Made by a program: the position numbers and the translations under genes. The notes below the pieces were generated by a model. It saw only the letters and a list, made by a program, of their open reading frames with translations, was not told where the DNA came from and made no database searches. DNA of 42,089 bases from a virus (taxonomy: Duplodnaviria > Caudoviricetes), in IMG/VR virus record IMGVR_UViG_3300033232_000036, positions 1 through 42,089 of that record; one strand, 5' to 3'. Positions within the stretch are counted from its first letter, which is position 1. Every line of letters starts with the position of its first letter. Shown piece by piece: positions 201 to 40,329 of the stretch.

Positions 201-293
201 GGCGAAGTCTTCATATACCTACCAATCAATTGAGGTATTGTATAACAACCAACTTAAAACGGTTGAAACAACATAAACGAGATGAGCAAAATG
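201..293 (+). promoter_or_regulatory. Dispersed early promoter-leader cassette, copy 1
   Basis: BRE-like GGCGAAG, TATA-like TCATATAC, 30-nt core GTATAACAACCAACTTAAAACGGTTGAAAC (240-269), then AACATAAACGAGATGAGCAAAATG (RBS and start). Confidence 0.85.
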
Positions 294-545
294 TTAGACC
301 AAACAAGAATCGAAATGTTATTAGTGGAATACGGGAACAAAATAAGCGACAACGACCACATTGACCCACAGTTCCGTCATGGTATTGTTGCAGCCCTGCA
401 AAGCGTGTTAGAAATTGACGACGACCAAGTGCGCGAACTTATGAACAAGCACCCAAGAGGACTTAACTTATGGCAGGTACAGGAAGATTTAAGTCCAATT
501 CTGATGGGCGCGCGTTATGAAGGCACGTACAACACAGAGGAATAA
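291..545 (+). CDS. Hypothetical early protein (paralog of 10090-10260)
   Basis: ORF directly after cassette 1. FRHGIVAALQSVLEIDDDQVREL resembles YNRGTVDAYQHILKLTDEQMQQL in the 10090 ORF. Confidence 0.75.
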   Translation: MLDQTRIEMLLVEYGNKISDNDHIDPQFRHGIVAALQSVLEIDDDQVRELMNKHPRGLNLWQVQEDLSPILMGARYEGTYNTEE

Positions 546-549
546 GTGC

Positions 550-1200
550 ATGACAGAAACCAACACACAAAACGAGTTTTATGGGGCGCTATTACGCGCC
601 CAACAGCGAATCGGCACTATCGCCAAGGACAAAACCAATCCATACCATCAGAGCAAATATGCAGATATAAACGATATGCTCGAAATGGTTAAGCCAATCT
701 TGAACGACGAGGGCCTGCTATTAATGCAGCCGTTGACCCACGTCGGCGGAGCGCCGGCAATCTCTACGATTATTATGGGGTACGGCACTTCCATAGAGTA
801 TGAAACGGTTATTCCCTTCCGAGATGACCCACAAAAGGCCGGAAGCGCGATAACGTATTTCCGCCGGTACGCGCTGCAATCTATCCTCGCCTTGCAGGTT
901 GAGGACGACGATGGCGAGGCTGCAAGACTTAAGATAAAAACCGAAGCCAAACCAGCCGCCAAGGCAAACCCCTCACAGGGCACCAAGTTCACGCCGGCAT
1001 CCGAACACACGCCAGACACAGAGGCGCCAAGCGAAGAACCTGCCGAGGCGGTTATAATCCCGACCTGCTCAATATGTCAAGCGCCAATGAAGCCTACGAG
1101 GGCAGGTAGTAAAAACCCGTTCTTCTGCAAGCACGGAAGCGCATGGGGCGTTCCTGTATGGCCACAAGAGGGCGTAAATGAAACGGGGTCAACTGAATGA
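550..1200 (+). CDS. erf: ERF-family ssDNA-annealing protein with C-terminal Zn-finger-like tail
   Basis: NPYHQSKYADI...DPQKAGSAITYFRRYALQSILAL..EDDDG are ERF hallmarks, followed by a Pro/Ala linker and CxxC...CxH. Confidence 0.9.
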   Translation: MTETNTQNEFYGALLRAQQRIGTIAKDKTNPYHQSKYADINDMLEMVKPILNDEGLLLMQPLTHVGGAPAISTIIMGYGTSIEYETVIPFRDDPQKAGSAITYFRRYALQSILALQVEDDDGEAARLKIKTEAKPAAKANPSQGTKFTPASEHTPDTEAPSEEPAEAVIIPTCSICQAPMKPTRAGSKNPFFCKHGSAWGVPVWPQEGVNETGSTE

Positions 1201-1246
1201 CCCCTGACGAACTTAATACAGCAGCGTCCCGCGAAGCGGCGGAACT

Positions 1247-1283
1247 GTCGCAATGCGAAATCCACTAAAACAAGGATTGAAAC
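1247..1283 (+). CRISPR. Solitary 37-nt CRISPR repeat (no array, no cas genes)
   Basis: GTCGCAATGCGAAATCCACTAAAACAAGGATTGAAAC is 37 nt with an AATCC/GGATT stem and the 3' handle ATTGAAAC. The 3' part matches, from memory, the Methanosarcina-type Cas6b repeat (...ATCCACTAAAACAAGGATTGAAAC). It lies between erf and the DUF488 gene. Confidence 0.85.
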
Positions 1284-1340
1284 ACCATAAACGACGAAAT
1301 TAACGAGGCTGTGGCAAAAGTGGTTCAATTCGGCATAGAT

Positions 1341-1733
1341 ATGACACCTATTAACAAAGGGTTTTATACGATAGGCTATGGAGATTTAACCGAAGAACAA
1401 TTCCTCTCCAAACTGACCAAGGCAAATATCACTCTTTTAATTGATGTCAGGAGCGCCCCCGACACCGAAAGGTTCGGTCGGCGTCGAATGATGGCCTTGC
1501 TAGGAAACAAGTACAGGTCAGTCCCTAAACTCGGCGGCCTGCAATACAGCCCGTTAAGATATGCGCTATGGAGGGACAATGTGCTTGCTGAACTTGAAAG
1601 TATCCACCAGTGGAGTAAATGGGGCGCCGTGTGCGTGATGTGCGCGGAGGCCGAACCGAACAGGTGTCACAGAACGTATTTTATTGGCAGGGCAATGAAA
1701 GAATTATATACTACCACACCAATTCATCTATGA
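1341..1733 (+). CDS. DUF488 family protein
   Basis: YTIGYG, LIDVRSAP, LGG and MCAEAEPNRCHR motifs typical of DUF488. Confidence 0.85.
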   Translation: MTPINKGFYTIGYGDLTEEQFLSKLTKANITLLIDVRSAPDTERFGRRRMMALLGNKYRSVPKLGGLQYSPLRYALWRDNVLAELESIHQWSKWGAVCVMCAEAEPNRCHRTYFIGRAMKELYTTTPIHL

Positions 1734-1949
1734 CGAGCAGGCTAAACACCCAAACCATTTTTAATAAACAAAGTTCCTCGCGGTTTTGTTTATGTACTAC
1801 CCAACCCCGTCGATAACATCGGCACACGATGAAAAGTATCCTGCTCGCACTCTCTTTTCTTATTGTTTTTAACTCCCCTATCCCCCCAAACCCCCCATAA
1901 GCGGTGCAAAACGCTATACTTTTATACCGTCGGCTGCATCTGTGTTGTA

Positions 1950-2177
1950 ATGGTTGATACGATAAATACACACACAGCCACACGAGGGAATAACGGGCTC
2001 GTGATATATATTCCACAGCCCTTAAGGGTAGATAGTAAAAACCCAATCGGGCCAAACATGGCTATCACAATAACCGTCGACGGCGACCGAATGATAATTG
2101 AACCGACGGGCGCGAAACCGTTGGAAAAAAACCCCCGAAATTACAAATCTGAAAACATCTTCGGGCGACACTTTTAA
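1950..2177 (+). CDS. AbrB/SpoVT-like small DNA-binding protein (probably leaderless)
   Basis: GNNGLVIYIPQPLR...ITITVDGDRMIIEP swapped-hairpin pattern. A TTTATA box at ~1920 lies about 25 nt before the ATG. Confidence 0.7.
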   Translation: MVDTINTHTATRGNNGLVIYIPQPLRVDSKNPIGPNMAITITVDGDRMIIEPTGAKPLEKNPRNYKSENIFGRHF

Positions 2178-2232
2178 TTTATGGTATATTGAAATTTTAA
2201 CTACTAAATATAATAAAATTAAAGAGGACAGC

Positions 2233-3024
2233 ATGGCAACACAAATCTTTAAACTCAAAAATCTCAAGGCGGCGCCATATAACCCGCGTGTGAAACAAGT
2301 GGCAGGAATGCCAGTATACGAACAAATCAAGGCCAGCATTGAAAAGTTCGGTTACGTTGATTTAATGGTCGTCAACCGGCGGAACAATGTTATTATCGGC
2401 GGGCACCAACGCGCGCCGGTGCTCGCTGACCTAGGATATACCGAGGTTGAATGTGCCGTGGTAGACCTTGACGAGCCGATGGAAAAGGCGTTAAACATTG
2501 CACTTAATAAAATCGATGGTAAGTGGGACGAGGCGTTGTTAAGTGCGTTGGTTTATGAATTGGGCGCGTTGCCTGCGTTCGATTATAATACAATCGGCTT
2601 CACCCTTTCCGAAGTTGACGACCTTGCGTTGTTCCTCCCCCCGCTAGAAACCGGCGACGATGCTGATAACCAGTTATACCCAAACGGGTCCGAAGATGGC
2701 GCTGCGATTGCCATGGGGCCAGACGGTACACCGGCGCGCGGCGTAACACAAGACGGCCAGCAGGCCCCTATCGAGTACAGCCGGCCAGAGTTCAAAGATA
2801 TATGCGACACGTTTGCACAGAACAAAACATCAGAGAAGAATACGAATTGGTTTTATGTAGAGTATTACGAGAATAATGAGTTATTTGAAGAACTCGCGGT
2901 ATTGCTGAAGTCGCATTTAAAGGGCCAGTCAGGGCATGAAATACACGGCGACACGTTTGCATTAATGGTCAAACAGTTCGCTGCCAACCCTGCATCTCCC
3001 ATCACGGAGCACACGGAGGGGTAA
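2233..3024 (+). CDS. ParB/Srx N-terminal domain protein
   Basis: LKAAPYNPR...SIEKFGY..MVVN...IIGGHQR...EKALNIALNKIDGKWD is the phage ParB-like domain normally paired with DNA-modifying enzymes. RBS GAGGA. Confidence 0.9.
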   Translation: MATQIFKLKNLKAAPYNPRVKQVAGMPVYEQIKASIEKFGYVDLMVVNRRNNVIIGGHQRAPVLADLGYTEVECAVVDLDEPMEKALNIALNKIDGKWDEALLSALVYELGALPAFDYNTIGFTLSEVDDLALFLPPLETGDDADNQLYPNGSEDGAAIAMGPDGTPARGVTQDGQQAPIEYSRPEFKDICDTFAQNKTSEKNTNWFYVEYYENNELFEELAVLLKSHLKGQSGHEIHGDTFALMVKQFAANPASPITEHTEG

Positions 3025-4442
3025 TGCGGTTCGAGGAACGAAACGTATGCACAGAGTGCGTCCAGCATTCGGGGTCTTGCGGCGGTGTAAATGCCTGCCA
3101 TGAGATACGGGCCCCGCTGCGCCCCTTTGATGGGATTAGATTAACAGCGGATGGCTTTGATTGTGCGCTGCCACTAACATTCGATTCACATTCGGTCTGT
3201 TCTTTTGGTTGTCTGTATTGTTTTGCGCCGAACCTAATAACACACCGCGCCGCTAGTCAGGCCCCCATCGGTCAGACGAGCCTGCAAAAGATTGAACAAA
3301 TATTCGCGGGTACCGGCGGAAAGTCGGCGGCGTTATATCGCAAAGCGCTCAAATATGACAACTTAAAAAACGGGTATCCGTGCCCCGTGCAAGTGGGCGG
3401 ACTATGTGACCCGCTGGACAACATTGAGCGAAATCAGGGTTGGTTTCTTAAGTTCGTTGAGTTGGCGAAGAAATACAACCAGCCGGTCAGGATTAGTACA
3501 AAAGGTAATCTTTTTTTAGAGCAGGAATATCTCGATGCAATAGCGGACCGGCCCGAATTGTTTTGGATTACCTACTCCATCATATCCATTGACGATGACA
3601 TAATCAAGCAGGTTGACAAGCGCGCCCCAGTTGCGAGCGACCGTTTGCAATCCATGCAAAATCTGACCGACATAGGCGTAAAGACCGGCTTAAGATTCCG
3701 GCCCATGATTCCGGGGATAAGCGATGCAACCAAAAACTATCCTAACGCATACGCAGACCTAATCAACGCAGCAGCCGACGCAGGGGCGACGTCATTGAGT
3801 TACGAAGTCGCGTTCCTCCCCGGAGCAATGACTCCCGACCTGCACGCGCGCTGGGAGGAAATAGAGCACATAGCCGATAAACCACTGATGAAGATTTACG
3901 AATCCTTCGGGAAGAAGCAAAGTTGCAACCGGCCGTCGCACGCATGGACAGAGGAAATTATGCACGCAGTATATAGAGTTGGCAAGTCGCGCGGCCTGCA
4001 AATAGGCGTCAGTGACCCCGTATGGAAACAGTTGAACGAGTGCGGGTGTTGTTGTGGTATCACCGAGGACGACCCCGTTTTCGGTAATTGGCAGACGGAG
4101 AGTGCTACGAATCAACTTCTCATCGCAAAGCGCGACGGTAAGTTTCTTCGGGCGTCGGATATTGTGCCTGCATGGGCACGCGAAGCAAAAGCCGACTTAA
4201 TGACGAACCCCGGAACGGGTCCGCTAGTACAATTTAAACGCCGACATGAAATGTGGAGCGATAAACTGGAAGAACTGTGGGAAAATCCGGCCAAGGAGCG
4301 TTCACCGCTGCAATATTTTCAAGGGGCACTCATGCCAGTTAAGCGGGATGCGGAAGGAAATTTAGTTTATAAATACGTTGGTTTAAAGCGGGTACACCCC
4401 AAAAAGACTCCGTACTGGACAGTAAATAACGTTAAGGAGTGA
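3024..4442 (+). CDS. Radical SAM protein (spore photoproduct lyase-like)
   Basis: CSFGCLYC (CxxxCxxC), then DP, ISTK and RFRPMIPG segments. Extra Cys clusters occur at the N-terminus and at CGCCCG. TAATG overlap with the ParB gene. Confidence 0.85.
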   Translation: MRFEERNVCTECVQHSGSCGGVNACHEIRAPLRPFDGIRLTADGFDCALPLTFDSHSVCSFGCLYCFAPNLITHRAASQAPIGQTSLQKIEQIFAGTGGKSAALYRKALKYDNLKNGYPCPVQVGGLCDPLDNIERNQGWFLKFVELAKKYNQPVRISTKGNLFLEQEYLDAIADRPELFWITYSIISIDDDIIKQVDKRAPVASDRLQSMQNLTDIGVKTGLRFRPMIPGISDATKNYPNAYADLINAAADAGATSLSYEVAFLPGAMTPDLHARWEEIEHIADKPLMKIYESFGKKQSCNRPSHAWTEEIMHAVYRVGKSRGLQIGVSDPVWKQLNECGCCCGITEDDPVFGNWQTESATNQLLIAKRDGKFLRASDIVPAWAREAKADLMTNPGTGPLVQFKRRHEMWSDKLEELWENPAKERSPLQYFQGALMPVKRDAEGNLVYKYVGLKRVHPKKTPYWTVNNVKE

Positions 4443-4969
4443 TTGGTTTGGATTATAAATGTCTCGGGAAAACGGAAGAACTAAGGGCGCGCCGATACCA
4501 AGTGCTCGTCGCATTCCTTAAAGGTGGGAATCCGGCCGAAATTGCAAAGGGCACAAATTTCCCCATTCGGCAGGTATACAGCGACATCGATTACCTTCGG
4601 CGCAATCCGTTGAATACGTTGCCCGTTGATATAGTGCGCGATTTTGGGGTGTCGTTTTACGAAATGAAAGTTACCGAATTGGAACGCCGTGCGCAATTAA
4701 TTAAAGACCCGAACTCTACATTGTGGCTCGGCATACAGAAATTGATTAAGGAATATAAATCGGAAATCTTAAAGTTGGTCGGTGCCAGCGTGGAACGAAT
4801 GGAATTAAGCGGAAAAGTCGAGCACACAGTGACGGCCACGTGGTTGAGCGATGTGCCCGATATGCTGGAATCCGAGGTAATACCAACACGGCTGAAGAAA
4901 CTTAAAGCCGAGCAGGCCGTCAAGGCGCTTGAAGATGCGGCCGATGAGGGAAGGCTGGAAGTGGAATAA
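4439..4969 (+). CDS. terS: Probable terminase small subunit
   Basis: N-terminal HTH (PAEIAKGTNFPIRQVYSDIDYL), a MELSGKVEH tail, and position immediately upstream of TerL. Confidence 0.7.
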   Translation: MIGLDYKCLGKTEELRARRYQVLVAFLKGGNPAEIAKGTNFPIRQVYSDIDYLRRNPLNTLPVDIVRDFGVSFYEMKVTELERRAQLIKDPNSTLWLGIQKLIKEYKSEILKLVGASVERMELSGKVEHTVTATWLSDVPDMLESEVIPTRLKKLKAEQAVKALEDAADEGRLEVE

Positions 4970-6474: not shown

Positions 6475-6537
6475 ACGGGGGCTTTTAAAGGCTCCTTTTT
6501 ACAATTATATCGGGATAAAATCCTTGGATTTGATAAT

Positions 6538-6792
6538 ATGATAGACCTAAACGCAGACTCAAACGGCCACACGGCCAATACATGGCACATAATCCGATTA
6601 AACGGGGCGAATGTGCCGGCAATGGTTGATAGCAATGGACATAGAATTTCACTCGCAGAGAATAGGATAAAATCAGACGGGACAAGCATGTACTCGGTGC
6701 GCTGTAAAGAAAAGGGCTGCAAGTTTCATTCGTTTGTGCACTTAAACGAATGGGGCGTGATACCGCTGCCATTTTACGACAATTATAGATGA
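6538..6792 (+). CDS. Small Cys/His-containing hypothetical protein
   Basis: ORF between terL and portal with a CxxxxCxFH motif. Confidence 0.6.
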   Translation: MIDLNADSNGHTANTWHIIRLNGANVPAMVDSNGHRISLAENRIKSDGTSMYSVRCKEKGCKFHSFVHLNEWGVIPLPFYDNYR

Positions 6793-6846
6793 TAGATACA
6801 ATAATATGCAATGTGAACAAATTATCATATACACAGTGAGTTCCCT

Positions 6847-8259: not shown

Positions 8260-8264
8260 ACATT

Positions 8265-9794
8265 ATGGCGGCTGAAGGCGATGTTTTAAAGCAAGAACAT
8301 TTATTTGTTCGTGAAATTACGCAGGCGTTTGAGCGCGCAATCTCGCGATTAAACGTGCATAAAAAAGTTAACCTTCGCAGCGCCGTCGGGCGTACCACTG
8401 TAATCAACAAACTCCATAAACGAACCGAGGCCGTTTACATGCTCGGCAAAGGCAACGCGCGCCAAGACATTAAAACCGCGCTTAAGCGAATTTCCGCAGC
8501 CAAGGCCGCCCCCACATTCTCGGGAGAGATAGCCGAGGGTGTTGTATTGGGGCCCTTTGAGGATAAACTTGTTAACAAATATACGCAGCAGTCCGTCGCC
8601 TATATGGATTTTATGGCGAAAGACGTACAGGCTAAAATGAACGATTCGTTACAAGAGGGCTTCCTTTTAGGCGAATCGGTGCCAAAGTTAACCAAGCGGG
8701 TTGAAAGTGTTTGGGGCTCGAATAAAGTTAGGGCAACACGGTTCGCACGTACTCAAACAAATTCGGTTTATAATGCAGCCCACGTCCACACGTACACCGC
8801 CGAACCGCTGATTGAGTGTGTTCAGTTTGTCGCTCGCCTTGATAGCCGTGTGTCCGAACAGTGCCGGTCTTATGATGGTACAATATGGAAATTAAGCGAT
8901 AGCAGCCTTCGGCGTCCACCCCTTCATTTCAACTGTAGAAGTAGATTAGTTGCATGGCCCTACTCATATCCGGGCAACCGAGATTTTACGAAGATGTCTG
9001 ATGGTACAACCAACACATACAGCCAACTCGCTGAGGTGAACAAACAGATAAAAACCTTCAACGAAAAGTATTGGAAGGAAATTAAGGTCACTGTCCGCGC
9101 AACGCGCGCCGGTAAGGTTGGTACCGTTGCAAGCACGGCAGCACCGAAGTTCACTACGGAAGAAATTGACTTTATGAAGTACGAATTTGAAACAAACGAA
9201 ATGAAGGAGGACATGTTTGACCGGCTGTATTCAAAAATGTTAACCGATGAGGAAAAATCCGCGGTTAAGGCATATACCGGAAGCGATTACCGGCTGATGA
9301 ATGAATATCTCCGCACAGGCAAAATCCCTGAAAATTACCTTCGCCATAATATATCATTAGAGGAAGTGACCGCGCGTGCACAAGCGTTAATTGATAACAT
9401 GGATTCCGCCTTTTCAAAAGCAAAGTTAAGTAAAAACATGACCGTACACCGTGGGATTTCCGCCGATGTTGCCGAGGGCATGTTAAAGACGGGCCGGCTG
9501 GAATATGCAGGGTATTCCTCAACAAGCGAGAGCCTTAAAACCGCGCGGTACTTTGCACGGGAAAACTCCGTTTCCGCTTTAGGTGAAGCGGGTTACAATT
9601 TAAAATATAAAGATGTTTTAGTATTTGACGTTAAAAAGGGTGCCAAGGGCATCCATTACGGCGGGGGCGAAGCCGAGATTATATTGGATAGGGGGCTGAA
9701 ACTTGAAGTGATTAAAATACAATTAGTCGAGGATGTGGAGTACTTATTAGGCCGGCACGACGCATACAGGTTTATTCATTGCAAGATTATTTAA
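8265..9794 (+). CDS. MuF/SPP1 gp7-like head morphogenesis protein fused to a C-terminal ADP-ribosyltransferase toxin domain
   Basis: MuF motifs FARTQT, D.RVSEQC..DG and PPLHFNCRS. The C-terminus has AYTGSDYRLMNEYLR, VHRG, YSSTS and EAE, the R-S-ExE signature of VIP2/C2-like ARTs. Confidence 0.9.
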   Translation: MAAEGDVLKQEHLFVREITQAFERAISRLNVHKKVNLRSAVGRTTVINKLHKRTEAVYMLGKGNARQDIKTALKRISAAKAAPTFSGEIAEGVVLGPFEDKLVNKYTQQSVAYMDFMAKDVQAKMNDSLQEGFLLGESVPKLTKRVESVWGSNKVRATRFARTQTNSVYNAAHVHTYTAEPLIECVQFVARLDSRVSEQCRSYDGTIWKLSDSSLRRPPLHFNCRSRLVAWPYSYPGNRDFTKMSDGTTNTYSQLAEVNKQIKTFNEKYWKEIKVTVRATRAGKVGTVASTAAPKFTTEEIDFMKYEFETNEMKEDMFDRLYSKMLTDEEKSAVKAYTGSDYRLMNEYLRTGKIPENYLRHNISLEEVTARAQALIDNMDSAFSKAKLSKNMTVHRGISADVAEGMLKTGRLEYAGYSSTSESLKTARYFARENSVSALGEAGYNLKYKDVLVFDVKKGAKGIHYGGGEAEIILDRGLKLEVIKIQLVEDVEYLLGRHDAYRFIHCKII

Positions 9795-9992: not shown

Positions 9993-10002
9993 TTCGTTCC
10001 AA

Positions 10003-10092
10003 CCGCTGTCTTCATATACACACCAATCAATTGAGGTAGTGTACAACAACCAACAAAAAGGTTGAACCAACATAAACGAGATGAGCAAAATG
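10003..10092 (+). promoter_or_regulatory. Dispersed early promoter-leader cassette, copy 2
   Basis: TTCATATAC box, core GTACAACAACCAACAAAAAGGTTGAACC (10041-10068), then AACATAAACGAGATGAGCAAAATG. Confidence 0.85.
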
Positions 10093-10635: not shown

Positions 10636-10697
10636 ATCGCAGGAATTTATATCGGGGTTTTTGTTAAATGGGGCACTTAAAAGCCCCCGTTTCTACA

Positions 10698-10789
10698 AGC
10701 GATATCCTTATATACATACCAATCAATGAGAGCATGTACAACAACCAACTTAAAACGGTTGAAACAACACAAACGAGATGAGTAAAATG
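10698..10789 (+). promoter_or_regulatory. Dispersed early promoter-leader cassette, copy 3
   Basis: TTATATAC box, core GTACAACAACCAACTTAAAACGGTTGAAAC (10736-10765), then AACACAAACGAGATGAGTAAAATG. Confidence 0.85.
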
Positions 10790-12869: not shown

Positions 12870-12896
12870 CTATATTTCCCAGATGGGTGACTTGCT

Positions 12897-12987
12897 CCGA
12901 AAGGCTCATATACTTACAGGCTAATGAGAACATGTACAACAACCAACTTAAAACGGTTGAAACAACACAAACGAGATGAGTAAAATG
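12897..12987 (+). promoter_or_regulatory. Dispersed early promoter-leader cassette, copy 4
   Basis: CCGAAAGG BRE, TCATATAC box, core at 12934-12963. Core and downstream sequence are identical to copy 3. Confidence 0.85.
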
Positions 12988-28582: not shown

Positions 28583-29512
28583 ATGGGATTTACAAGCGGA
28601 GCGAAAAATTTATACGATTTGGTCGATGATATAGCGAACGGGTTAATAGGGTCATCAGTGAATTGGGTTGAAGGTGATGCAACGTGGAATACAACCGACC
28701 GAACGAATGGACAGGAGTATGGAAAAAGATGCTTAAAATACACCGGCGACACGGCTAATGTATGGATTGCGATTGAAGTTGGCAACTACTCAACGTCAAT
28801 ATATGCGACAACATATTACGCAAAAGGGCTAAGAATAACAATGAGTTCTTCATGGGACGAAATAGAACACAAACCCCCAGCCGGAGCAATGTATACTTAT
28901 ATCAGTTTTGAGATGGCGTACAACGCGCAAGCAACCGCAAACCTTTCGACGTTGTTATTAACTTATTATCTATGGATTGATGCATTCGGATTTTGTATCA
29001 TGGCAAAGCCGGAACCATTTGCCGCAGACTCACACCAACAATCCTTCTTCTGCTCACTGGAGCGCGTTCCAACGAAGGAATACGCAGACGGTTATTCAAA
29101 TTTTTTCCTTACATCACATTGTAATATATGGCCATCAGCGTATCATACAAGTTATCCCGACACGCATCGGCATTCTTGTTATTTAAGATTCCCTAACTTC
29201 AAGTTCCCCACAACCACAACAACCAACGCCGCGTGGAATAATGGCATTTCTTTGCCGCCTATAAGATATAATGCGTTCAAAAGTAATGGGAATGGAAAAG
29301 TGTATTATGTGAAACCGGTGTATCATAATACTCAAAATTGTCGAACCCCTATCGCTCAGGCGAATAATTGGTTTTATTGGTCCGAAATCGCTGGTTTAAT
29401 TGATGGGGATATTGTGGCCATTGATGGCGCAACAACGAAATATTTATGCAAATCGTTAGATTCGCCAAACAGCACCACACGCCTAACATATGCAATAAAA
29501 TACGTCGCCTAG
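28583..29512 (+). CDS. Putative receptor-binding/adsorption protein, paralog A
   Basis: Aromatic/Asn-rich and clearly paralogous to 29525-30469 (MGFTSGAK...LTYAIKYVA). Confidence 0.65.
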   Translation: MGFTSGAKNLYDLVDDIANGLIGSSVNWVEGDATWNTTDRTNGQEYGKRCLKYTGDTANVWIAIEVGNYSTSIYATTYYAKGLRITMSSSWDEIEHKPPAGAMYTYISFEMAYNAQATANLSTLLLTYYLWIDAFGFCIMAKPEPFAADSHQQSFFCSLERVPTKEYADGYSNFFLTSHCNIWPSAYHTSYPDTHRHSCYLRFPNFKFPTTTTTNAAWNNGISLPPIRYNAFKSNGNGKVYYVKPVYHNTQNCRTPIAQANNWFYWSEIAGLIDGDIVAIDGATTKYLCKSLDSPNSTTRLTYAIKYVA

Positions 29513-29524
29513 GAGGATTAAAAC

Positions 29525-30469
29525 ATGGGATTTACAAGCGGAGCGAAAGTCTCCGCAGATTTAATTGACTCCATCGCCAACGGGTTAATAGGGTCATCAG
29601 TGAATTGGAGTGACAATGATGTGACGTGGAATACCAGCGTAAGAACTGGAAATCTAGCAAGGCGGTCGTTAATTTATACTGGCGACACAACCGATATTTA
29701 CATCGCAATAGAGGTCATAAACACTCAAACACCTTTTGTTTATTATTATAATGGTAATAATAATGTATGGGTGTATGGGAAAGGAATTAGAATAGTAATA
29801 ACGTCGTCATGGGACTCTGTGAACCACACATATCCGGCCGGAGGGATGGCGACTTTCGTCCCATTTGAAGCACATTCAACCACAATTGCAGCGGATATGG
29901 AAACGCTCCAAATAACTTATTATATGTGGCTCGACGCGAATGGGTTTGTAATAATGGGAGTTCCAGAACCGACAACCGACGGATATCAACAGGCGTTTAA
30001 AATTTCACTTGAACGAGTCGCAGCAAAGGAATACGCAGACGGTTATTCAAATTTTTTCCTTCATGCAGCGTGTAATATATGGCCACACTTCTACGATACC
30101 TCCAACGTTGTCGACTATAACCGAAACCGTGGATACATTAGGTTTCCGGCATTTTATTACCCGACGAATGACAACAATACCACAGCAGTATGGAATAATG
30201 GAATAACGCTGGCACCAATAACCCAACACGCTTTCAAAAGCGAAGGGAATGGAAAAGTGTATTATGTCAAACCGGTATATCATAATGATGTTTTATGTAG
30301 AACTCCGATAGCACAGGCTGAAAGTTGGTTTTATTGGAATACAGATGTTGGTTTGGTTGATGGGGATATAGTGGCTATTGATGGCGCAACAACGAAATAT
30401 TTATGCAAAGGGCTTCAGTCTCCAGACAGCATAAATAGATTAACATATGCAATAAAATACGTGGCATAA
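29525..30469 (+). CDS. Putative receptor-binding/adsorption protein, paralog B
   Basis: Tandem paralog of 28583-29512. Confidence 0.65.
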   Translation: MGFTSGAKVSADLIDSIANGLIGSSVNWSDNDVTWNTSVRTGNLARRSLIYTGDTTDIYIAIEVINTQTPFVYYYNGNNNVWVYGKGIRIVITSSWDSVNHTYPAGGMATFVPFEAHSTTIAADMETLQITYYMWLDANGFVIMGVPEPTTDGYQQAFKISLERVAAKEYADGYSNFFLHAACNIWPHFYDTSNVVDYNRNRGYIRFPAFYYPTNDNNTTAVWNNGITLAPITQHAFKSEGNGKVYYVKPVYHNDVLCRTPIAQAESWFYWNTDVGLVDGDIVAIDGATTKYLCKGLQSPDSINRLTYAIKYVA

Positions 30470-32310: not shown

Positions 32311-32366
32311 TGGTTCCACACCTTTTAAAAACAGTTAAATACAAATACCAATATACAACCATATTG

Positions 32367-32831: not shown

Positions 32832-32927
32832 TTGTGTGTTGTCAAAAACGATACGTTTATATTATGGCCTCGAATATAAAGTGTGAATGTTACGTCCAAG
32901 AGCCAAAGGTTCTAATGACGTTTTGCA

Positions 32928-33222
32928 GTTGTTAACAGATTGTTAACAAGATTTGTTAACAGATTGTTAACTGTTAACAAAATAACCCCCATGAAAGGAG
33001 CAACCCCCAACAAAAACAAATCAAACCCCCCCAAACACCAATAAATCAACCCAAAATGTAAATTTATTTATTCTATGTAAAAAAACCTTTAAATTTACAT
33101 TTAACACTATTTTATTGAGTATAGTTTAGTTAGTTGTAAATATAACTAAAAAAAAGAGTAAAAAAGAACAGCAGCCTAAAAGTTAACACCAGTTTGTTAA
33201 CAGTTAACAATCTGTTAACAAC
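32928..33222. repeat. Iteron-like GTTAAC arrays in perfect inverted repeat around an AT-rich core (candidate replication origin)
   Basis: Nine GTTAAC copies (32931, 32942, 32955, 32966, 32973; 33182, 33196, 33203, 33214). A 29-bp perfect IR at 32953-32981 / 33193-33221 and an inner 13-bp IR at 33054-33066 / 33090-33102. Confidence 0.85.
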
Positions 33223-33270
33223 CCCACAACCCGAACAAATATATGGATATTTAGGCAGTAAAAAAAAGAG

Positions 33271-33636: not shown

Positions 33637-33653
33637 CGGCTGAATCAAGCGAA

Positions 33654-33746
33654 GTCGCAATCCTTATATACATACCAATCAATGAGAGCATGTACAACAA
33701 CCAACCCAGAGCGGTTGAACCAACATAAACGAGATGAGCAAATATG
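33654..33746 (+). promoter_or_regulatory. Dispersed early promoter-leader cassette, copy 5
   Basis: Promoter part identical to copy 3. Core GTACAACAACCAACCCAGAGCGGTTGAACC (33692-33721) keeps the stem with a different loop. Confidence 0.85.
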
Positions 33747-34880: not shown

Positions 34881-34890
34881 GGGCTCCAAT

Positions 34891-35499
34891 ATGGCAGCCC
34901 CCAACAGCATAACTGACCTAGTACGCTCGTTTGTAGACGGCGCAACGAAGGGACATAAAGCCCCCGTCATCGTTTTTGGTGACGGGCTTTACACCGTAAC
35001 GCAAAACCAATATAATTTAATAGGGTATCGTTTCAGCTCTCGGTTTTTCTTTGTTAATGCATATAATCTTTATAATCGGGGCGAGCGAACGGTTAAAAAT
35101 ATATTAATCCAGCAGTTGTCATTTCGAAACATAGAATACCGTAAAGTGGAATTAAAAAACCCTTGGCATCTAGGCGAATGCCCAACAGCAAACAACATAA
35201 CGGATATTTTGGAGGCCGTGGCTACATTAAATAATTATCAAAAAACAATCGAAAAGCAGACTGGATATGATGCCGTAAGGGTCAGGGTAAGCGCGCTCCG
35301 TTGGCTGCTCCACGGTTCGCGCATCCGTATTAAGCAAAAGGACAACAGTCTTTTAGGGGTGGATATATTTCGGTTAAAGTTTCAATCAAACGATACCGAC
35401 CAAGACAAACGCGCGCTTATCAAAGAATATAACGAATTTAAAATCAAACACGTTCATATTAATCGAACGATGCAACTGCTTAAAACGCTCGTTAGATAG
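34891..35499 (+). CDS. Hypothetical protein, paralog family X member 1
   Basis: NSITDLVRSFVDG...GDGLY.V...RFFFVN, shared with the next two ORFs. Confidence 0.7.
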   Translation: MAAPNSITDLVRSFVDGATKGHKAPVIVFGDGLYTVTQNQYNLIGYRFSSRFFFVNAYNLYNRGERTVKNILIQQLSFRNIEYRKVELKNPWHLGECPTANNITDILEAVATLNNYQKTIEKQTGYDAVRVRVSALRWLLHGSRIRIKQKDNSLLGVDIFRLKFQSNDTDQDKRALIKEYNEFKIKHVHINRTMQLLKTLVR

Positions 35500-35508
35500 G
35501 GTGAAATT

Positions 35509-36174
35509 ATGGGACATATAAATAATATAAAAGATTTAGTTGAGCATTTTTACACCGGCGGCACATGGCCCCGCATCGCAATGAAGAACTCGGCGATAAT
35601 ACACGGGCGCGGCCTGTATGCAGTATCCGACGGGATTTACATTCCGGCAGCGATAAAAATAGGGCGCGGGCTGTTTGTTGTAAATAACACAAATCTTAAA
35701 ACACGGGGCGCCCTTGAACGGTTAACCGGCATGATTAAAGCCCTTGCAGCCGAGGCACCAAGCGCCCCCGATGTATTTTATACCACGATGGAGCCGGTTG
35801 AGCGGCCCGGAATATACCCCGACATAACAACCACTTTAAACACCATGGAAAATTTTATCCAGCGCCGGCTCGCGGGGTTGGAATTTGATTGGGCGCAAGT
35901 CGGCACAATCCAACGCGAATCAATCGAACCAAGGCGTACCGACCACGTTGAAAAAATCGAAGCAATCGCCGAGTATAGGAACGAGCAGGAAAAGCAGGCC
36001 GAATATAATCGTTATAAGGAATTAATGTGCATAGACATAATACTGGAAGAAACGATAGCGGCTGGCGGCATATCTCCGGAAAAGTACGAACGGTTAAAGC
36101 GCACCTACAACGAAATGACGGCGCGGGCACACGAAACTGAAATCTTCATCAAGCACATAACCAGCATAATATAG
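35509..36174 (+). CDS. Hypothetical protein, paralog family X member 2
   Basis: NNIKDLVEHFYTG...GRGLY.V...GLFVVNN. RBS GGTGA. Confidence 0.7.
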   Translation: MGHINNIKDLVEHFYTGGTWPRIAMKNSAIIHGRGLYAVSDGIYIPAAIKIGRGLFVVNNTNLKTRGALERLTGMIKALAAEAPSAPDVFYTTMEPVERPGIYPDITTTLNTMENFIQRRLAGLEFDWAQVGTIQRESIEPRRTDHVEKIEAIAEYRNEQEKQAEYNRYKELMCIDIILEETIAAGGISPEKYERLKRTYNEMTARAHETEIFIKHITSII

Positions 36175-36189
36175 ACGGGCGGTTTAAAC

Positions 36190-37017
36190 GTGAATTTAAA
36201 AGGCGTTACAGCGACAAACCTGCCGAAAGGATTACGGCATGACAGCGGGACACATATCAGCCCAGTAGATGCACGTGGCGCTCTACTGGGCACCCTGCCC
36301 CCTCCCCCAGACAAACGACATAAACAGGCGATGGAAATAGTCGATGCGTTCCTTGACGGCGTGGATTATTATGTCACGGATAAGTACCTAATATGCAATG
36401 ACGTTTTATGGCTGCTCGGGCCGAAACCCGTTTTTAATTATGGGGATATTGAAAACGATACCGGCACCAATGCCATGGATATACAATATGTGCCAATTCT
36501 CGCCCGCATCGGTGTTAATAATGCAGTGATTCGCAATGATGCTCCCCTGCTTCAAAAAAGGATGTACGGCAAAGACATTAAAGCTATTAAAACGGCTATA
36601 CGGGGCCAAATAAAAGCGATTGTAGTGGACACTTCGATTGGTTTCCCATTTGGTAACCCCCATAGTGACATAATGAGTGCAATCTCGGTATTTCAGGTGC
36701 GTATGATATGTGAACGTGTCAATAATAAATTTAAACCGATGGTTGTAAGCGGTTTGCCCGCGCCGTCCACCGCCGAGCAGGTTAAGCAGGCGTTCCGATT
36801 GTTGGAAATGCGCGCTGTCAGCGAAGTTCGGCTCCGGCACGTTGAAAAAATGATTAGATTAGAAGAACGCTGTAAAGGGAGCACCGACATCGAACAAATA
36901 CTATCTCTTGCAGCGCATTTAAATGAGGTTTATGGGAAAATACGAGCCCACATTGAAACACGAATATTGGTCCTTCAAGAGTTCACACACAAACCAGAGG
37001 AAGAGTATGGCGTTTAA
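36190..37017 (+). CDS. Hypothetical protein, distant paralog family X member 3 (start uncertain)
   Basis: AMEIVDAFLDG...NDVLW...ARIGVNNAVIRN. Confidence 0.6.
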   Translation: MNLKGVTATNLPKGLRHDSGTHISPVDARGALLGTLPPPPDKRHKQAMEIVDAFLDGVDYYVTDKYLICNDVLWLLGPKPVFNYGDIENDTGTNAMDIQYVPILARIGVNNAVIRNDAPLLQKRMYGKDIKAIKTAIRGQIKAIVVDTSIGFPFGNPHSDIMSAISVFQVRMICERVNNKFKPMVVSGLPAPSTAEQVKQAFRLLEMRAVSEVRLRHVEKMIRLEERCKGSTDIEQILSLAAHLNEVYGKIRAHIETRILVLQEFTHKPEEEYGV

Positions 37018-37099
37018 AAGCCCATAAGTGAGGCTGAAGTGGGGGCAGGTCCGCGCAAATGTGTCGTTAATACATCGACGTATTGGGTCTAATGGGTTA

Positions 37100-37173
37100 G
37101 GCAAACCTTCATATATCTTGCAATTAATGAAGAAGTGTACAAATACCAACTTAAAAAGGCGGTTAAAGAGATG
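37100..37173 (+). promoter_or_regulatory. Dispersed early promoter-leader cassette, copy 6 (degenerate)
   Basis: GGCAAA BRE, TTCATATAT box, then GTACAAATACCAACTTAAAAAGGCGGTTAAAGAGATGAGC. Confidence 0.7.
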
Positions 37174-38706
37174 AGCACAAATAAAACAATACTAGAACAG
37201 GCGATACCCACTGAAACGAACGCTATTAAGCGCGATTCGTTTGATGCAGCGGCGTTCGCGTCTATGATAAACACGGCCGAGGCGCTAAAAACCGTAAATG
37301 AGGAAGGCGTCGCAGAACTGAAAACGTTTGAACCATTACTGGAAGACATTTTTAGCAGTCTGTTCAAATACAACCCGAAAAAACTCCTCGCCGGGGAGTT
37401 AAAGGAAAGCCATCAATTGAACTACGACATGGTTTCCAAATCTCTGATGTCCGAACAGTATGCGCGGTTAAGGCAATATACCAAACTGGACGACGTAAAC
37501 AGCGCTCTAGCGACTATAACAATCGCGAACGCATTGATTCCAGAAATTAAGGATGCACTCGCCGAGCAGGTTAAGCAGGCGAACGAACTTAAGGCCCTAG
37601 AGGATGGCGTTGAGGCGGCAGAAAATGAACTGGCAGAGTTTGAGGCTGGCAATGGCAGCGGACAAGGCAGCGACCCACAGACACGCAAAAAGCAAAAGCA
37701 ACAACTTTCCAAGGGAGTAAAAAGTGCGAAGGCCAAGTACGACAAGGGCGCCGCCGCGGCTAAGGCAGCACCGGCGAATCAACCGGCTATTAGACAAACC
37801 ATGAGAAAAGCCACTCAGGACGCGCTGGCTGAAATTGAGGAAACCTCGGAAATGATAGAAATGTGGGGAACCGACGCCGGCGAAATGCAATCTCTAAACG
37901 CAGAGCAGCGGATACGATTGGCTCAACAAATTAACGACAATGTGCGCCTTAAAAAACTGGCAAAAATACTCGGCCGATTTAAGCGGTTGGCAGTGGGTGC
38001 TCAAGCCACTAAAGTTACGCACGGGTTCGATGAAGTTTATGATATAACGCTCGGCAACGACCTTAACCGAGTGATTCCTAGCGAAATGATATTGTTACGA
38101 AATGCAAAAACGAAAATGGAGTTTGCACGGCGCTTCGCCGAAGCGAAACTGATGCAATATGATTTAAGGGGGCGCGAAAATATTGGGAAGGGCCCGATAA
38201 TATGTTGTCTTGACGCGAGCGGAAGTATGTCACTAGAACAGGACGTTTGGAGCAAGGCTGTCGCATTGGCATTGATGGAAATTGCACACCGGCAGAAACG
38301 CGCGTTCGCTGCAATCCACTTCGGCAGCGAGAACGACCCCTTAAAGACGGTATTTGTTAAGAAGGGCGAAACCAAAACCCTTCACAAGGTCATTGAAATA
38401 GCCGAATATTATCTCGGCGGCGGCACCGACTTTGAAAAGCCACTCAACAAAGCAATGGAAATTATAGAATGCGTGGAGTTTAAAAAGGCCGACATAGTGT
38501 TCATAACCGACGGAAGTTGTCGTATTGGCGACACATGGTTAACCGGCTTTAATGCAGCCCGCGCCGAAAAGGGGGTGCGGATTACAACGGTTTTAATTGA
38601 TGCGGGGCACACGTCCGACCACACCGTAAAAGAGTTTTCGGACCGTGTGCTATTCTCGTCAAATATGACAGCAGACGACGCGGTCGACATATTTGGGGCG
38701 GTGTAA
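37171..38706 (+). CDS. VWA-domain protein (ViaA-like partner of the MoxR ATPase)
   Basis: GNDLNRVIPSE, KGPIICCLDASGSM (MIDAS DxSxS), GGGTDF and FITDG. Confidence 0.92.
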   Translation: MSTNKTILEQAIPTETNAIKRDSFDAAAFASMINTAEALKTVNEEGVAELKTFEPLLEDIFSSLFKYNPKKLLAGELKESHQLNYDMVSKSLMSEQYARLRQYTKLDDVNSALATITIANALIPEIKDALAEQVKQANELKALEDGVEAAENELAEFEAGNGSGQGSDPQTRKKQKQQLSKGVKSAKAKYDKGAAAAKAAPANQPAIRQTMRKATQDALAEIEETSEMIEMWGTDAGEMQSLNAEQRIRLAQQINDNVRLKKLAKILGRFKRLAVGAQATKVTHGFDEVYDITLGNDLNRVIPSEMILLRNAKTKMEFARRFAEAKLMQYDLRGRENIGKGPIICCLDASGSMSLEQDVWSKAVALALMEIAHRQKRAFAAIHFGSENDPLKTVFVKKGETKTLHKVIEIAEYYLGGGTDFEKPLNKAMEIIECVEFKKADIVFITDGSCRIGDTWLTGFNAARAEKGVRITTVLIDAGHTSDHTVKEFSDRVLFSSNMTADDAVDIFGAV

Positions 38707-38955
38707 GTGGCCCCAGAAGTTACAGAAACCCCAGAGGAACGCGCGGCACGCAACAAGCACCGCGTCTTTAAGGGGCCGCTAAATTTAATTCAGCGATTTG
38801 AGGAAACCAACAAGGACAGAATAGACGAAGCGGTTAGAATGATGGTTGAGGACAATGCCTCCAACCACGAGGTCATAAAAACCTGCCATCTAGGGTCGCG
38901 CGTGGTACAACGTATCCGTCGGACGCGGGTTGAGCACGCCGAGCACCCGTTTTAA
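38707..38955 (+). CDS. Small HTH protein
   Basis: ASNHEVIKTCHLGSRVVQRIRR. Confidence 0.6.
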   Translation: MAPEVTETPEERAARNKHRVFKGPLNLIQRFEETNKDRIDEAVRMMVEDNASNHEVIKTCHLGSRVVQRIRRTRVEHAEHPF

Positions 38956-39078
38956 AATCAATTGAGCGGGGTATATATACGATGGAAACATACGGATATA
39001 CAATAAACAACAAAGGAGTAGATAGGCAAATAAACCAACAACAATAGACACGAACTGTAAGAATCAATACAACCTCCC

Positions 39079-39260
39079 GAACTATGCAGGGGCGGAAAGG
39101 CGGCCAGTTATTTTATAACTAAAACGCCTCATCTCGAATCTTTTAAGACCGCCCCGTACACCCTGCATCGTTCCACAAACAAATCAACCACAGTCGCTTG
39201 AATAATTGGTTAAGTCCACCCCCTGCAACGGGGTCAAGTGCATATAAACGAATGAGGCGA
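39079..39260 (+). ncRNA. Candidate structured leader RNA with alternative pairings upstream of ORF 39265
   Basis: Nested stems plus an anti-RBS segment; see findings. Confidence 0.45.
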
Positions 39261-39264
39261 AATA

Positions 39265-39729
39265 ATGTCAAAACCAATAACACCGTCAGAAATGCAAGCA
39301 ATTTTAGAAATGGAACAAAGGAGCCGCGAGGCATTCCCGCGCGTTAAGCGCGCGCTCAACGGTTTAAACGATAAGGAAGCAATCGCAATCCTCGGCATGG
39401 TCAAAAGTGACCTACAAACACAACGCACGACCCGCCAAACTGGCAAACTATTCAAGGACATAATGGACGCGGTGCTTGATGTGTTGACGGCAGACAAGAC
39501 CAACGATGAACGAAAGGCAATGCAAACCAGTTTAAACAGTAAATTACAAACACTTGAAAAGGCAGCGAACGGGGAATTAAATGAAATAATGCATGGCATT
39601 ATAGATTCGGAAGATGTCGATATTGGTGTCGTGCTGGCCAGTGTATTCGATGATATGAGAAAGGAGTTGACCCCCGAATTTAAGCCGCTGTTCACGGTAA
39701 TGGAATCTGGCACGCTGCCAGAAAAATAA
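39265..39729 (+). CDS. Hypothetical helical protein
   Basis: RBS GAGGCG, 154-aa ORF. Confidence 0.75.
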   Translation: MSKPITPSEMQAILEMEQRSREAFPRVKRALNGLNDKEAIAILGMVKSDLQTQRTTRQTGKLFKDIMDAVLDVLTADKTNDERKAMQTSLNSKLQTLEKAANGELNEIMHGIIDSEDVDIGVVLASVFDDMRKELTPEFKPLFTVMESGTLPEK

Positions 39730-39749
39730 GAATTGAATGAGGTACTTAC

Positions 39750-40103
39750 ATGGAATTGACTGTAAAGCAAACCGGCAAAACCCGAATCCTTGATGAGGGT
39801 GATGTCAAGGAAAAACATACGATGACAATGGTTGGCGCGAGCCGCGACGGAAAGTTAAATGTGAAGGTAACATTTACAGCGGACTCACCTGCAACTATCG
39901 CTTCGCAGGTGCCAATGATTGAGGGCACCAAGCGCGACATCGTGTTTAAAAAAGTAAACCAAACCCTTGACGAGTTTAAGGCCGACGGCGCTATTCCTAA
40001 GGGCGCCGTCGACATGACCGACGCAGACCAAGAGGCATATGAGGCACGGCTTAAAGCAGCACTTGACATAGACAAGCCCATCACCCTCTACACATCGGTT
40101 TAA
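39750..40103 (+). CDS. Hypothetical protein
   Basis: RBS GAGGT, followed by a T-rich terminator-like tract at ~40131-40150. Confidence 0.75.
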   Translation: MELTVKQTGKTRILDEGDVKEKHTMTMVGASRDGKLNVKVTFTADSPATIASQVPMIEGTKRDIVFKKVNQTLDEFKADGAIPKGAVDMTDADQEAYEARLKAALDIDKPITLYTSV

Positions 40104-40231
40104 ATCGTCTGTATGGGCCATTTAAACGCCCTTTCTTTTTTATTTTTATATTATTCAAACGCAGGCTTTTATCTCGCGTAAATCTCACAACGGGGCTCTT
40201 AAAAGGCTGCGTTTCCATTAATCGTGCTCTT

Positions 40232-40329
40232 AGGCGAAGACCTCATATACACACGGGTCAATTGAGGTATTGTACAACAACCAACTTAAAACGGTTGAAA
40301 CAGCATAAACAAACGAGATGAGCAAAATG
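40232..40329 (+). promoter_or_regulatory. Dispersed early promoter-leader cassette, copy 7
   Basis: GGCGAAG BRE, TCATATAC box, core GTACAACAACCAACTTAAAACGGTTGAAAC (40272-40301), then AGCATAAACAAACGAGATGAGCAAAATG. Confidence 0.85.

Follow-up and report, generated by a model that had tools for sequence, protein, structure and literature searches.

According to the accessible portions of the reports cited here, the class I intergenic repeats of the archaeal tailed virus HF2 are tested promoters (PMC8707807), and the early genes of SIRV2 share one regulatory sequence, which marks anti-defence genes in archaeal viruses (PMC11065993). Aca-like proteins have been proposed as early-gene repressors in Sulfolobales viruses. 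Where early regulatory sequences of archaea contain inverted repeats, these have been read as repressor sites (PMC11065993). In the tested RNA anti-CRISPR (Racr), inhibition is due to the stem-loop that Cas6 binds and to the RNA preceding it, not to the handle, and the activity of RacrIF1 is carried by the upstream product (PMC10651486). Strongly degenerate repeats can function in CreTA (PMC9458426).

The virus genome analysed here, a window of 42,089 nucleotides, is circular and of Methanosarcinales type. It contains seven promoter-leader-RBS cassettes, all on the + strand and each running up to a start codon. A unit of about 90 nt is made of a TATA-like box, a GTA, a leader of 37-58 nt, an SD-like motif and the start codon. 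In all seven cassettes 28-29 nt separate the beginning of the TATA-like box from the downstream GTA, and the transcription start sites given below are predictions from TATA spacing only. The units of promoter, leader and RBS described in the original prediction are thus present at all seven sites, with TATA spacing, SD-like motif and start codon. A profile of the seven copies recovers them at E values of 1.6e-25 to 2.9e-14, as it does its training copies by construction; in the rest of the genome no match falls below E 0.89. The cassettes and the genes behind them are as follows.

Cassette 1, 201..293, + strand: BRE/TATA-like promoter, predicted start 240, stem at 246-265, SD-like motif GAGATGA, start codon at 291; in front of an 84-aa ORF, ERF, the solitary repeat and DUF488
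Cassette 2, 10002..10092, + strand: 8-nt loop, GAACC; heads small ORFs without known family at 10090 and 10264
Cassette 3, 10697..10789, + strand: heads small zinc-ribbon-like ORFs at 10787 and 10968, then more ORFs without known family
Cassette 4, 12895..12987, + strand: leader identical to that of cassette 3, different promoter sequence; heads ORFs without known family, starting at 12985
Cassette 5, 33653..33746, + strand: loop sequence replaced at the same length, GAACC; heads a MoxR-type AAA ATPase, in frame with the second ATG only
Cassette 6, 37099..37173, + strand: short form without handle and tail; heads a vWA protein starting at the first ATG (37171)
Cassette 7, 40233..40329, + strand: tail with a 4-nt duplication; heads a 23-aa hydrophobic ORF (40327-40398), then DUF6744 (40684-41856)

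The cassettes precede non-virion gene blocks (ERF, small ORFs of no known family, MoxR, vWA, DUF6744), and none of the seven heads a terminase, head or tail gene. Several near-identical intergenic copies in gene orientation, fixed BRE/TATA spacing and non-virion genes downstream, as in HF2/SIRV2-type cassettes, are all found here. The cassettes likely drive strong early transcription and translation using the host machinery. TBP and TFB would bind the BRE/TATA, transcription would begin near the GTA, and the weakly folded, A/C-rich leader would offer its SD-like GAGATGA to the ribosome. Bacterial -35/-10 elements were also considered for the handle and discarded: the -10 box would sit on the start codon, and the other signals of the genome look archaeal.

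The leaders carry a CAACC/GGTTG stem with a 10-nt loop, which had been ascribed to the cassettes at large, in five of the seven copies; the loop has 8 nt in copy 2 and the stem is lost in copy 6. GAACC replaces GAAAC in the handle of copies 2 and 5, as had been predicted. The handle is thus altered in two of the seven copies, and it is absent from one. The copies are mosaic; promoter type and handle type assort independently. When they are aligned with the homologous cassette L121 described below (8 sequences), the columns that never vary fall within the TATA box, the 5' half of the leader and the SD/start region; the handle is not invariant.

The inverted repeat, a short way downstream of the predicted start site, could be the DNA operator of a viral repressor that shuts off the early genes. 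Its arms are conserved, the 10-nt spacing is kept in copy 5 despite the replaced spacer sequence, RNA covariation is absent, and the repressor-site reading of archaeal early inverted repeats in the available part of PMC11065993 points the same way. One ORF of an early block shows helix-turn-helix-like features.

82-aa ORF, 38707..38955, + strand: 3' of the vWA gene, helix-turn-helix-like features with a score of 0.87-0.88

This ORF, which has no Pfam match at E<=0.1, is a lead only for a putative repressor acting on the cassettes. Its helix-turn-helix score stays below 0.9 without Pfam support, copy 2 has a spacing of 8, copy 6 has lost the arms, L121 has different ones, and an operator alone leaves the link to the CRISPR repeat unexplained. 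We regard an operator as an unlikely account of the inverted repeat.

The CRISPR repeat lies in the block of cassette 1, where the following features were distinguished.

ERF single-strand annealing protein, 550..1200, + strand: candidate agent of inter-cassette exchange
23-aa ORF, 1197..1268, + strand: ATG overlapping the ERF stop, end inside the repeat; coding-like, in frame with DUF488
Solitary 37-nt CRISPR repeat, 1247..1283, + strand: Rfam CRISPR-DR7, within the predicted transcript of cassette 1
Repeat end and 11 downstream bases, 1277..1294, + strand: stretch common to six leaders (16-17/18)
DUF488 gene, 1320..1733, + strand: P0026, the only relative found, is 67% identical and called from the equivalent start

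That a solitary CRISPR repeat is present was confirmed: 1247-1283 matches CRISPR-DR7 at 47.6 bits (gathering score 37, E 8.4e-7), and an HMM built from 23 host repeats matches 1248-1283 at E 2.9e-10. It is the single repeat match in the virus record. The closest host array repeats differ from it at 4 positions, and none of 284 genomes contains it at <=3 mismatches. The closest repeat type flanks a type I-B operon in host genome G007; no Cas family was found among the 56 virus ORFs scanned. The repeat sits between the ERF and DUF488 genes, overlapping the 23-aa ORF, and the clear promoter nearest to it is cassette 1, about 1 kb upstream, as against the 250 bp within which the promoter of a Racr unit is expected. 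Both of its flanks are coding-like in the DUF488 frame, with log-odds of 6.5 and 6.7 against off-frame 99th percentiles of 3.2 and 2.8, so that a coding origin is available for the tail shared with the leaders. The 23-aa ORF is likely a gene start interrupted by the repeat.

Such an interruption could also be produced by an assembly chimera of virus and host array, in which case only the cassettes would be biological. The repeat does break coding-like sequence, and the record is a single metagenomic contig. However, for a chimera to arise, two spacers in a row would have to bridge both flanks, viral contigs often carry solitary repeats of the CRISPR-DR7 family (31 loci), and the DUF488 of the relative is likewise called from a downstream start, which makes this explanation highly improbable. 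The solitary repeat is a likelier candidate for an RNA anti-CRISPR element than the leaders and is proposed as a Racr candidate. The SRU lists accompanying PMC10651486 may already contain it. No convincing spacer match to the virus was obtained among 255 spacers, nor among 731 spacers.

The similarity between the repeat and the leaders extends past the repeat end, as the original prediction stated. Positions 1277-1294 and 263-280 (cassette 1) are identical at 17 of 18 bases, five further copies are identical at 16 of 18, and no other site of the genome lies within 3 mismatches of the shared 18-mer. The match has a chance probability of 7e-5 without gaps (3/40,952) and of 0.0019 under a gapped null (76/40,408 random placements), in a test picked after the match had been seen and with the six copies counting as one event. 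None of 24 other viral repeats has a comparable match in its own genome and none of 255 host spacers produces one. When the whole genome is searched with the cassette model, the best non-cassette match is the repeat junction (E 0.074). Of 36 aligned bases, leader and junction share 29. The core itself, anchored at the 3' end, is identical to the repeat at 12-17 of 28-30 ungapped positions; its gapped local score of 22 is reached in 53/20,339 background windows and in 1.85% of 20,000 shuffles (p 0.0185). The proposed link between leaders and solitary repeat therefore exceeds chance (p about 7e-5 to 2e-3; 0/24 other repeats). A second, weak likeness (p about 0.03) is seen between the repeat tail and the RBS/start region of the leaders and is given no weight here.

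It is quite improbable that the junction match is a coincidence among A/C-rich sequences and that the cassettes are ordinary promoters sharing no history with the repeat. The + strand does hold TTGAAAC 16 times, codons account for the tail at the repeat, and the gapped probability comes from a post hoc test of what amounts to one event. Yet two separate modest signals meet at the sole CRISPR repeat in 42 kb, and neither the other viral repeats nor the host spacers come close.

A functional reading of the same match, in which a self-directed crlRNA derived from the repeat uses its first 11 bases to guide the host's type I-B Cascade to leaders of the virus itself and represses early transcription, appears very unlikely. 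Repression through short matches is known for CreA, CreR and viral Cracrs (10.1101/2024.10.29.618823, part of the text available). Here the match is 10/11 in register with the handle in three copies and 9/11 in two more, and the closest repeat type adjoins the I-B operon of G007. However, guide position 2 is mismatched, and in four copies the PAM position is occupied by the same bases as the repeat end. Type I systems treat repeat-end bases in the PAM position as self. Guide and mRNA are moreover of the same sense, so type III pairing is impossible.

The original prediction took the leaders to be degenerate yet working repeats. No Rfam CRISPR family was detected on them (whole window at E<=1; copy 3 alone at E<=10), and the HMM of 23 host repeats gave 26 matches down to E 200, no leader among them. 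The core does not have CRISPR-repeat length, as had been claimed, but 28-30 nt compared with 37 nt in the matching host repeats. The stem register also differs: GG is followed by 8 nt (ATTGAAAC) in the repeat and by 7 nt (TTGAAAC) in the leaders, whose handle is thus one base short relative to the stem. A 3' motif invariant in 23/23 host array repeats, which were gathered with 2 mismatches permitted in the motif and had used none, is missing from the leaders. At <=3 mismatches the 24-nt core is found in 0/284 Methanosarcinales genomes. The suggested alignment for covariance revealed no covariation among the intact copies; a single 'both-sides' stem change was an artefact of misaligned copy 6. 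Leader folding is weak (z -0.01 to -2.25). The high identity over most of the repeat that characterizes Racrs is absent from all seven leaders, and so is the conserved Cas6 stem-loop with 8-nt handle: the loop motif is not kept, changing freely in copy 5, and the 7-nt handle is changed or lost in 3/7 and lacking in L121. The claim of working mimics was not upheld by these comparisons.

Several observations nevertheless speak for working repeats, namely the repeat-like stem geometry in five of the seven copies, the 29/36 bases shared with the junction, the low probability of this match with or without gaps, and the absence of a self-match for the other viral repeats. CreTA repeats tolerate degeneration (PMC9458426, in the part available), and in two other genomes (G294 and G300) a true repeat stands 14 nt upstream of a portal-like gene start. 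Against this, only 6 nt of leader precede the stem, whereas RacrIF1 activity resides in the upstream product (PMC10651486, in its accessible part). On balance, the leaders being degenerate but working repeats is doubtful. Leaders functionally responsive to Cas6 are a possibility to which we give little weight, and we are as hesitant about early 5' leaders rebuilt from a captured repeat junction, with host Cas6b processing or binding every early mRNA beside its RBS.

Searching related methanogen viruses, as had been advised, returned one homologous cassette. Locus L121 is a 1.4-kb metagenome locus of a distant virus upstream of a 48%-identical DUF6744 gene, and it is the top match of the seven-copy profile among 54 loci (E 0.065). 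It retains promoter, leader start and SD, and no handle. Among the DUF6744 loci (54 metagenome and 4 genome) it has the only cassette. The cassette model found none in 151 sampled Methanosarcinales genomes and, in 81 loci, L121 only, itself a training sequence. Scans of viral contigs with the cassette gave 0 loci in one case and 6 in another, all due to chance; 119 loci among the matches listed (34/64 parts scanned) were likewise dismissed as chance, judged by context. ERF, DUF6744 and MoxR each gave 0 matches in viral contigs, and the 35 distant loci from the terminase scan (26-40%) contain no cassette. The nearest relative, a 51-kb contig known by its proteins only, has terminase, DUF6744 and DUF488 at 79%, 72% and 67% identity. 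In ANMV-1 (terminase 38%), none of the 20 largest repeat families is a cassette family of this kind. G297, a virus with a solitary repeat of the same family, has four dispersed promoter-leader copies, which are unlike its repeat.

The explanation we lean to is that these are early promoter cassettes of the HF2/SIRV2 type and that sequence was exchanged between their 3' half and the locus of the solitary repeat, the repeat itself being the Racr candidate. The CRISPR-like 3' half probably stems from this past exchange, not from selection for Cas binding. We favour this because the cassettes stand before non-virion genes, the invariant columns lie outside the handle, L121 has no handle, promoter and handle types assort independently, no CRISPR model recognises the leaders, the 24-nt core was found in none of the 284 genomes, the repeat flanks score as coding and the promoter-leader copies of G297 are unlike its repeat, and because the HF2 repeats and the SIRV2 early regulatory sequence are precedents. 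A host repeat would have inserted in coding sequence, creating a new junction. An ancestral short leader (cf. copy 6, L121) would then have acquired the handle-plus-tail segment from this junction, and this version would have spread to six copies, homogenised by recombination or gene conversion with ERF encoded beside the repeat. Conversely, the repeat may have been captured at a leader tail through microhomology. The polarity, gain of the handle, rests on a single distant 1.4-kb outgroup, L121. Host Cas6b would cut the solitary repeat, which would be carried in the early transcript of cassette 1.

Some evidence weighs against exchange. The stem geometry (5 pairs, 10-nt loop) equals that of the repeat in five of seven copies, core-to-repeat similarity alone exceeds background, no site outside the cassettes fits the cassette model better than the junction, and strongly degenerate repeats can work in CreTA (PMC9458426, as far as its available text goes). 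If the segment was gained, selection could explain its spread to 6/7 copies, which also counts against exchange. A host spacer in G224 opens exactly with the leader tail (21/25 identical), an observation that exchange leaves unexplained.

With past exchange as the best reading, this is a further archaeal virus with repeated early promoters, which could serve to mark candidate anti-defence genes in a Methanosarcinales virus. It also yields an archaeal type I-B Racr candidate that is open to testing, and it gives a glimpse of CRISPR-repeat sequence passing into the regulatory DNA of a virus. Were the leaders Cas6 substrates, they would represent a new coupling of the viral early programme to host immunity; were they rebuilt from the repeat, the early regulon would be wired to, or titrating, the host crRNA maturation machinery.

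The statement that no described system has this layout is true of the repeat link as far as searched, published repeat-linked leaders not having been found in open-access papers and preprints, but not of the cassettes, for which HF2, SIRV2 and PeSLs provide counterparts. The comparisons that follow draw on the available parts of the cited reports. Like the HF2 intergenic repeats, the cassettes belong to an archaeal tailed virus, consist of near-identical BRE/TATA units scattered ahead of early/middle genes, and have motifs that are conserved about the start site (the HF2 TATA lies at about -26 to -29). Unlike them, the unit of about 90 nt includes a 37-58 nt leader and an SD-like motif, and its promoter activity is predicted, the two being likened by layout; in the accessible text on HF2 no CRISPR link is described (PMC8707807). 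With SIRV2 they share a single conserved promoter region for early genes, mostly small and unknown, and inverted repeats, there proposed as repressor sites; the host order is different, the inverted repeat is found 3' of the predicted start and not over the BRE, and the genes or blocks behind three of the cassettes are larger (MoxR, vWA, ERF) (PMC11065993). The PeSL cassettes of T4-type phages also combine a repeated early promoter with a recombinable stem-loop, and the copies here are mosaic; in contrast, the promoter is archaeal and the hairpin is weak, downstream of the start and not a terminator (PMC2839356). CreA, CreR and Cracr resemble the present case in that degenerate repeats and short guide matches can work (PMC9458426; 10.1101/2024.10.29.618823; 10.1101/2023.03.03.530964), whereas here the leaders of the virus itself are matched, the handle is part of the match and there is no separate PAM. 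Finally, 1247-1283 differs from Racr units in its coding-like flanks and in its place some 1 kb inside a transcript predicted to be polycistronic, but like these viral solitary repeat units it is complete, solitary, close to host repeats and preceded by an early promoter (PMC10651486).

The stretch is a whole virus record that was taken as circular, with a terminal overlap of 127 nt. Among its products are terminase, MuF, capsid and tail proteins, ERF, a MoxR ATPase, a vWA protein and DUF6744. We infer a Methanosarcinales archaeon as host, because the CRISPR repeat family of its solitary repeat is present in that order (67/284 genomes), Methanosarcinales bins contain DUF6744 relatives, and ANMV-1 is the top terminase match among described phages (38%). 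The exact host was not found when the repeat was searched in the 284 genomes and spacers (sets of 255 and 731) were compared with the virus. Elsewhere in the genome, an AT-rich non-coding stretch (32920-33230) is a candidate replication origin; it holds several direct repeats containing GTTAAC, as well as two long inverted repeats (perfect over 29 nt). An ADP-ribosyltransferase domain is fused to the MuF head protein (8265-9794), and two paralogous genes of ~310 aa each, 75-83% alike over stretches, lie in tandem at 28583-30469. Consecutive DUF488, ParB-like and radical SAM genes (1320-4442) may form a DNA-modification cluster; DUF488 also matches the PADLOC candidate families PDC-M45 and PDC-M19.

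Seven dispersed promoter-leader cassettes had been proposed, and all are present as described:

201-293, plus strand, cassette 1
10002-10092, plus strand, cassette 2
10697-10789, plus strand, cassette 3
12895-12987, plus strand, cassette 4
33653-33746, plus strand, cassette 5
37099-37173, plus strand, cassette 6
40233-40329, plus strand, cassette 7

A profile of the seven copies gave no further match below E 0.89. In 7/7 cassettes a TATA-like box starts 28-29 nt upstream of the GTA of the predicted start, and all of them head non-virion gene blocks. The start codon is likely the second ATG of the cassette, which alone is in frame with the downstream gene in copy 5 and in L121, a homologous cassette of another virus; this would make GAGATGA an SD-like motif. 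In copy 6 the first ATG is used. Two promoter types and two types of handle (the TTGAAAC-like end of the leader core) combine independently of each other across the copies, suggesting that these have recombined or undergone conversion. Just upstream of the cassette 5 TATA box, the 8 bases at 33654-33661 are identical to those that begin the solitary repeat, a single post-hoc match. Behind cassette 7, a GC-rich inverted repeat (40600-40650) separates a 23-aa ORF from DUF6744.

The solitary element at 1247-1283, between ERF and DUF488, is a true CRISPR-DR7 repeat. At the 32 loci inspected, the closest array repeats differ from it by 4 mismatches, and in G007 an array of this kind lies beside a type I-B operon. 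Similarity had also been claimed past the repeat end, and it holds: six leaders match the 18-mer of the repeat junction (1277-1294) at 1-2 mismatches, and nothing else falls within 3. The link between the leaders and the solitary repeat is real. The six matches amount to one event, and the test was picked once the match had been seen. A 10/11 match of the tail downstream of the handle occurs at 3/40,952 plus-strand positions; the frequency is 120/2,113,092 positions for other viruses and 0/255 for host spacers. With the true repeat placed at 40,408 random positions, 76 placements gave as high a gapped score (p 0.0019), and a cassette model returned the junction as its top non-cassette match (E 0.074). 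As controls, 24 of 31 viral loci carrying repeats of the family were traced to records and 23 retrieved, seven of them partial; one was dropped, its repeat lying at a contig end. None of the 24 repeat copies in these 22 records has a self-match within 2 mismatches.

The original prediction saw in the leaders CRISPR-repeat mimics, possibly responsive to Cas6/Cascade or acting as decoys. Its cassettes, true repeat and junction match stand, and with them a real link to the solitary repeat, whereas the core is not a repeat by any CRISPR model and is not supported as a working mimic. Neither an Rfam search nor an HMM built from 23 host repeats recognised the leaders, and the core was found within 3 mismatches in 0/284 Methanosarcinales genomes. 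The final 15 bases are invariant across the 23 host repeats, which were gathered with up to 2 mismatches permitted in that region; in the leaders GG runs straight into TTG, the intervening base being absent, and the host loop is not preserved. The handle is changed in copies 2 and 5 and absent from copy 6, and the leaders have 7 nt after the stem, in contrast to the 8-nt handle of type I-B crRNAs (PMC5965381, in excerpt). The hairpin folds weakly, at a minimum free energy between -2.5 and -5.7 kcal/mol (z from -0.01 to -2.25), with no covariation in the stem among intact copies. In the excerpted account of RacrIF1, inhibition comes from the stem-loop bound by Cas6 and from the RNA preceding that stem-loop, the handle being dispensable (PMC10651486), whereas the leaders have just 6 nt upstream of the stem. 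Stem geometry equal to that of the solitary repeat in 5/7 copies, and a gapped leader-repeat score matched by just 53/20,339 background windows (shuffle p 0.0185), count for a mimic. Since neutral and selected spread cannot be told apart from one genome, Cas6-responsive early leaders are retained as an unlikely explanation.

The segment setting the six long copies apart from the short forms (copy 6 and L121) is the one common with the repeat junction. L121, which precedes a 48%-identical DUF6744 gene, is the only homologous cassette found elsewhere and was the top profile match among 54 loci (E 0.065, before inclusion in any model). Promoter, leader start and SD are retained in it, but the handle-plus-tail segment is missing, as in copy 6. 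Most simply, one cassette would have exchanged sequence with the repeat junction and the result would then have spread among the copies, with the ERF gene adjoining the repeat as candidate agent. We infer both direction and agent, the polarity being based on one distant outgroup. Because both repeat flanks are coding-like when read in frame with DUF488 (log-odds 6.5 and 6.7; the off-frame 99th percentile is ~3), and because this frame opens at an ATG that overlaps the ERF stop, the solitary repeat seems to have entered a coding region, where the shared tail reads as codons.

Another virus, G297, carries a solitary repeat of this family and four dispersed promoter-leader copies on its contig C1:

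2345, minus strand, promoter-leader copy
4855, minus strand, promoter-leader copy
35778, minus strand, promoter-leader copy
38502, minus strand, promoter-leader copy

These are unlike its own repeat, and dispersed cassettes thus need no CRISPR explanation. Placement of a repeat in a leader does occur, since in G294 and G300 (L286:4001-4023; L292) a true repeat lies 14 nt upstream of a portal-like gene start, directly before the RBS; Cas6 might use it to process a late operon. Under a strict rule, an RBS-led ORF lies within 150 nt of only 5/25 other repeat copies. In G224, a spacer (L385:1512, minus strand) of an array adjoining Cas6b and RAMP genes opens with the leader tail, directly behind the handle. 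Its match (14 exact bases, 21/25), in a register imposed by the search, ranks first among 1,462 comparisons made with 731 spacers, seven others reaching 20/25 somewhere in the window; we estimate the probability of such a match by chance at roughly 1e-4 to 1e-3. In four genomes (L371:1380-1680, also L370, L372 and G242) an orphan CRISPR leader is conserved together with one degenerate repeat, an RBS-like tail and a 30-aa hydrophobic ORF, a candidate host crlRNA or toxin-antitoxin module. A host bin (G001, L179:1501-1537) has a solitary repeat upstream of a small operon.

Viral crlRNAs repressing host promoters are described in the excerpts of four sources (10.1101/2024.10.29.618823; 10.1101/2023.03.03.530964; PMC9458426; PMC12102369). 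That a crlRNA-like guide from the solitary repeat is aimed at the virus's own leaders is unlikely: its seed would be mismatched and the target has a repeat-like flank. Type I systems treat such a flank as self. Compared with RNA anti-CRISPRs and viral solitary repeat units (Racr/SRU), the leaders lack two defining features, repeat identity and a stem-loop with an 8-nt handle, while 1247-1283 shows two, a full repeat-family match and solitary occurrence. As to a third, an intergenic place with a promoter inside 250 bp, this element sits between ERF and DUF488 yet overlaps a 23-aa ORF, and cassette 1, the nearest clear promoter, is 1 kb upstream. As far as the excerpted sources go, the cassettes would work like the class I intergenic repeats of HF2, which have been shown to act as promoters (PMC8707807), like the early regulatory sequence of the SIRV2 type (PMC11065993) and like PeSLs (PMC2839356). 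Three HF2/SIRV2-type features are found in them: near-identical intergenic copies, BRE/TATA spacing and a place before non-virion genes.
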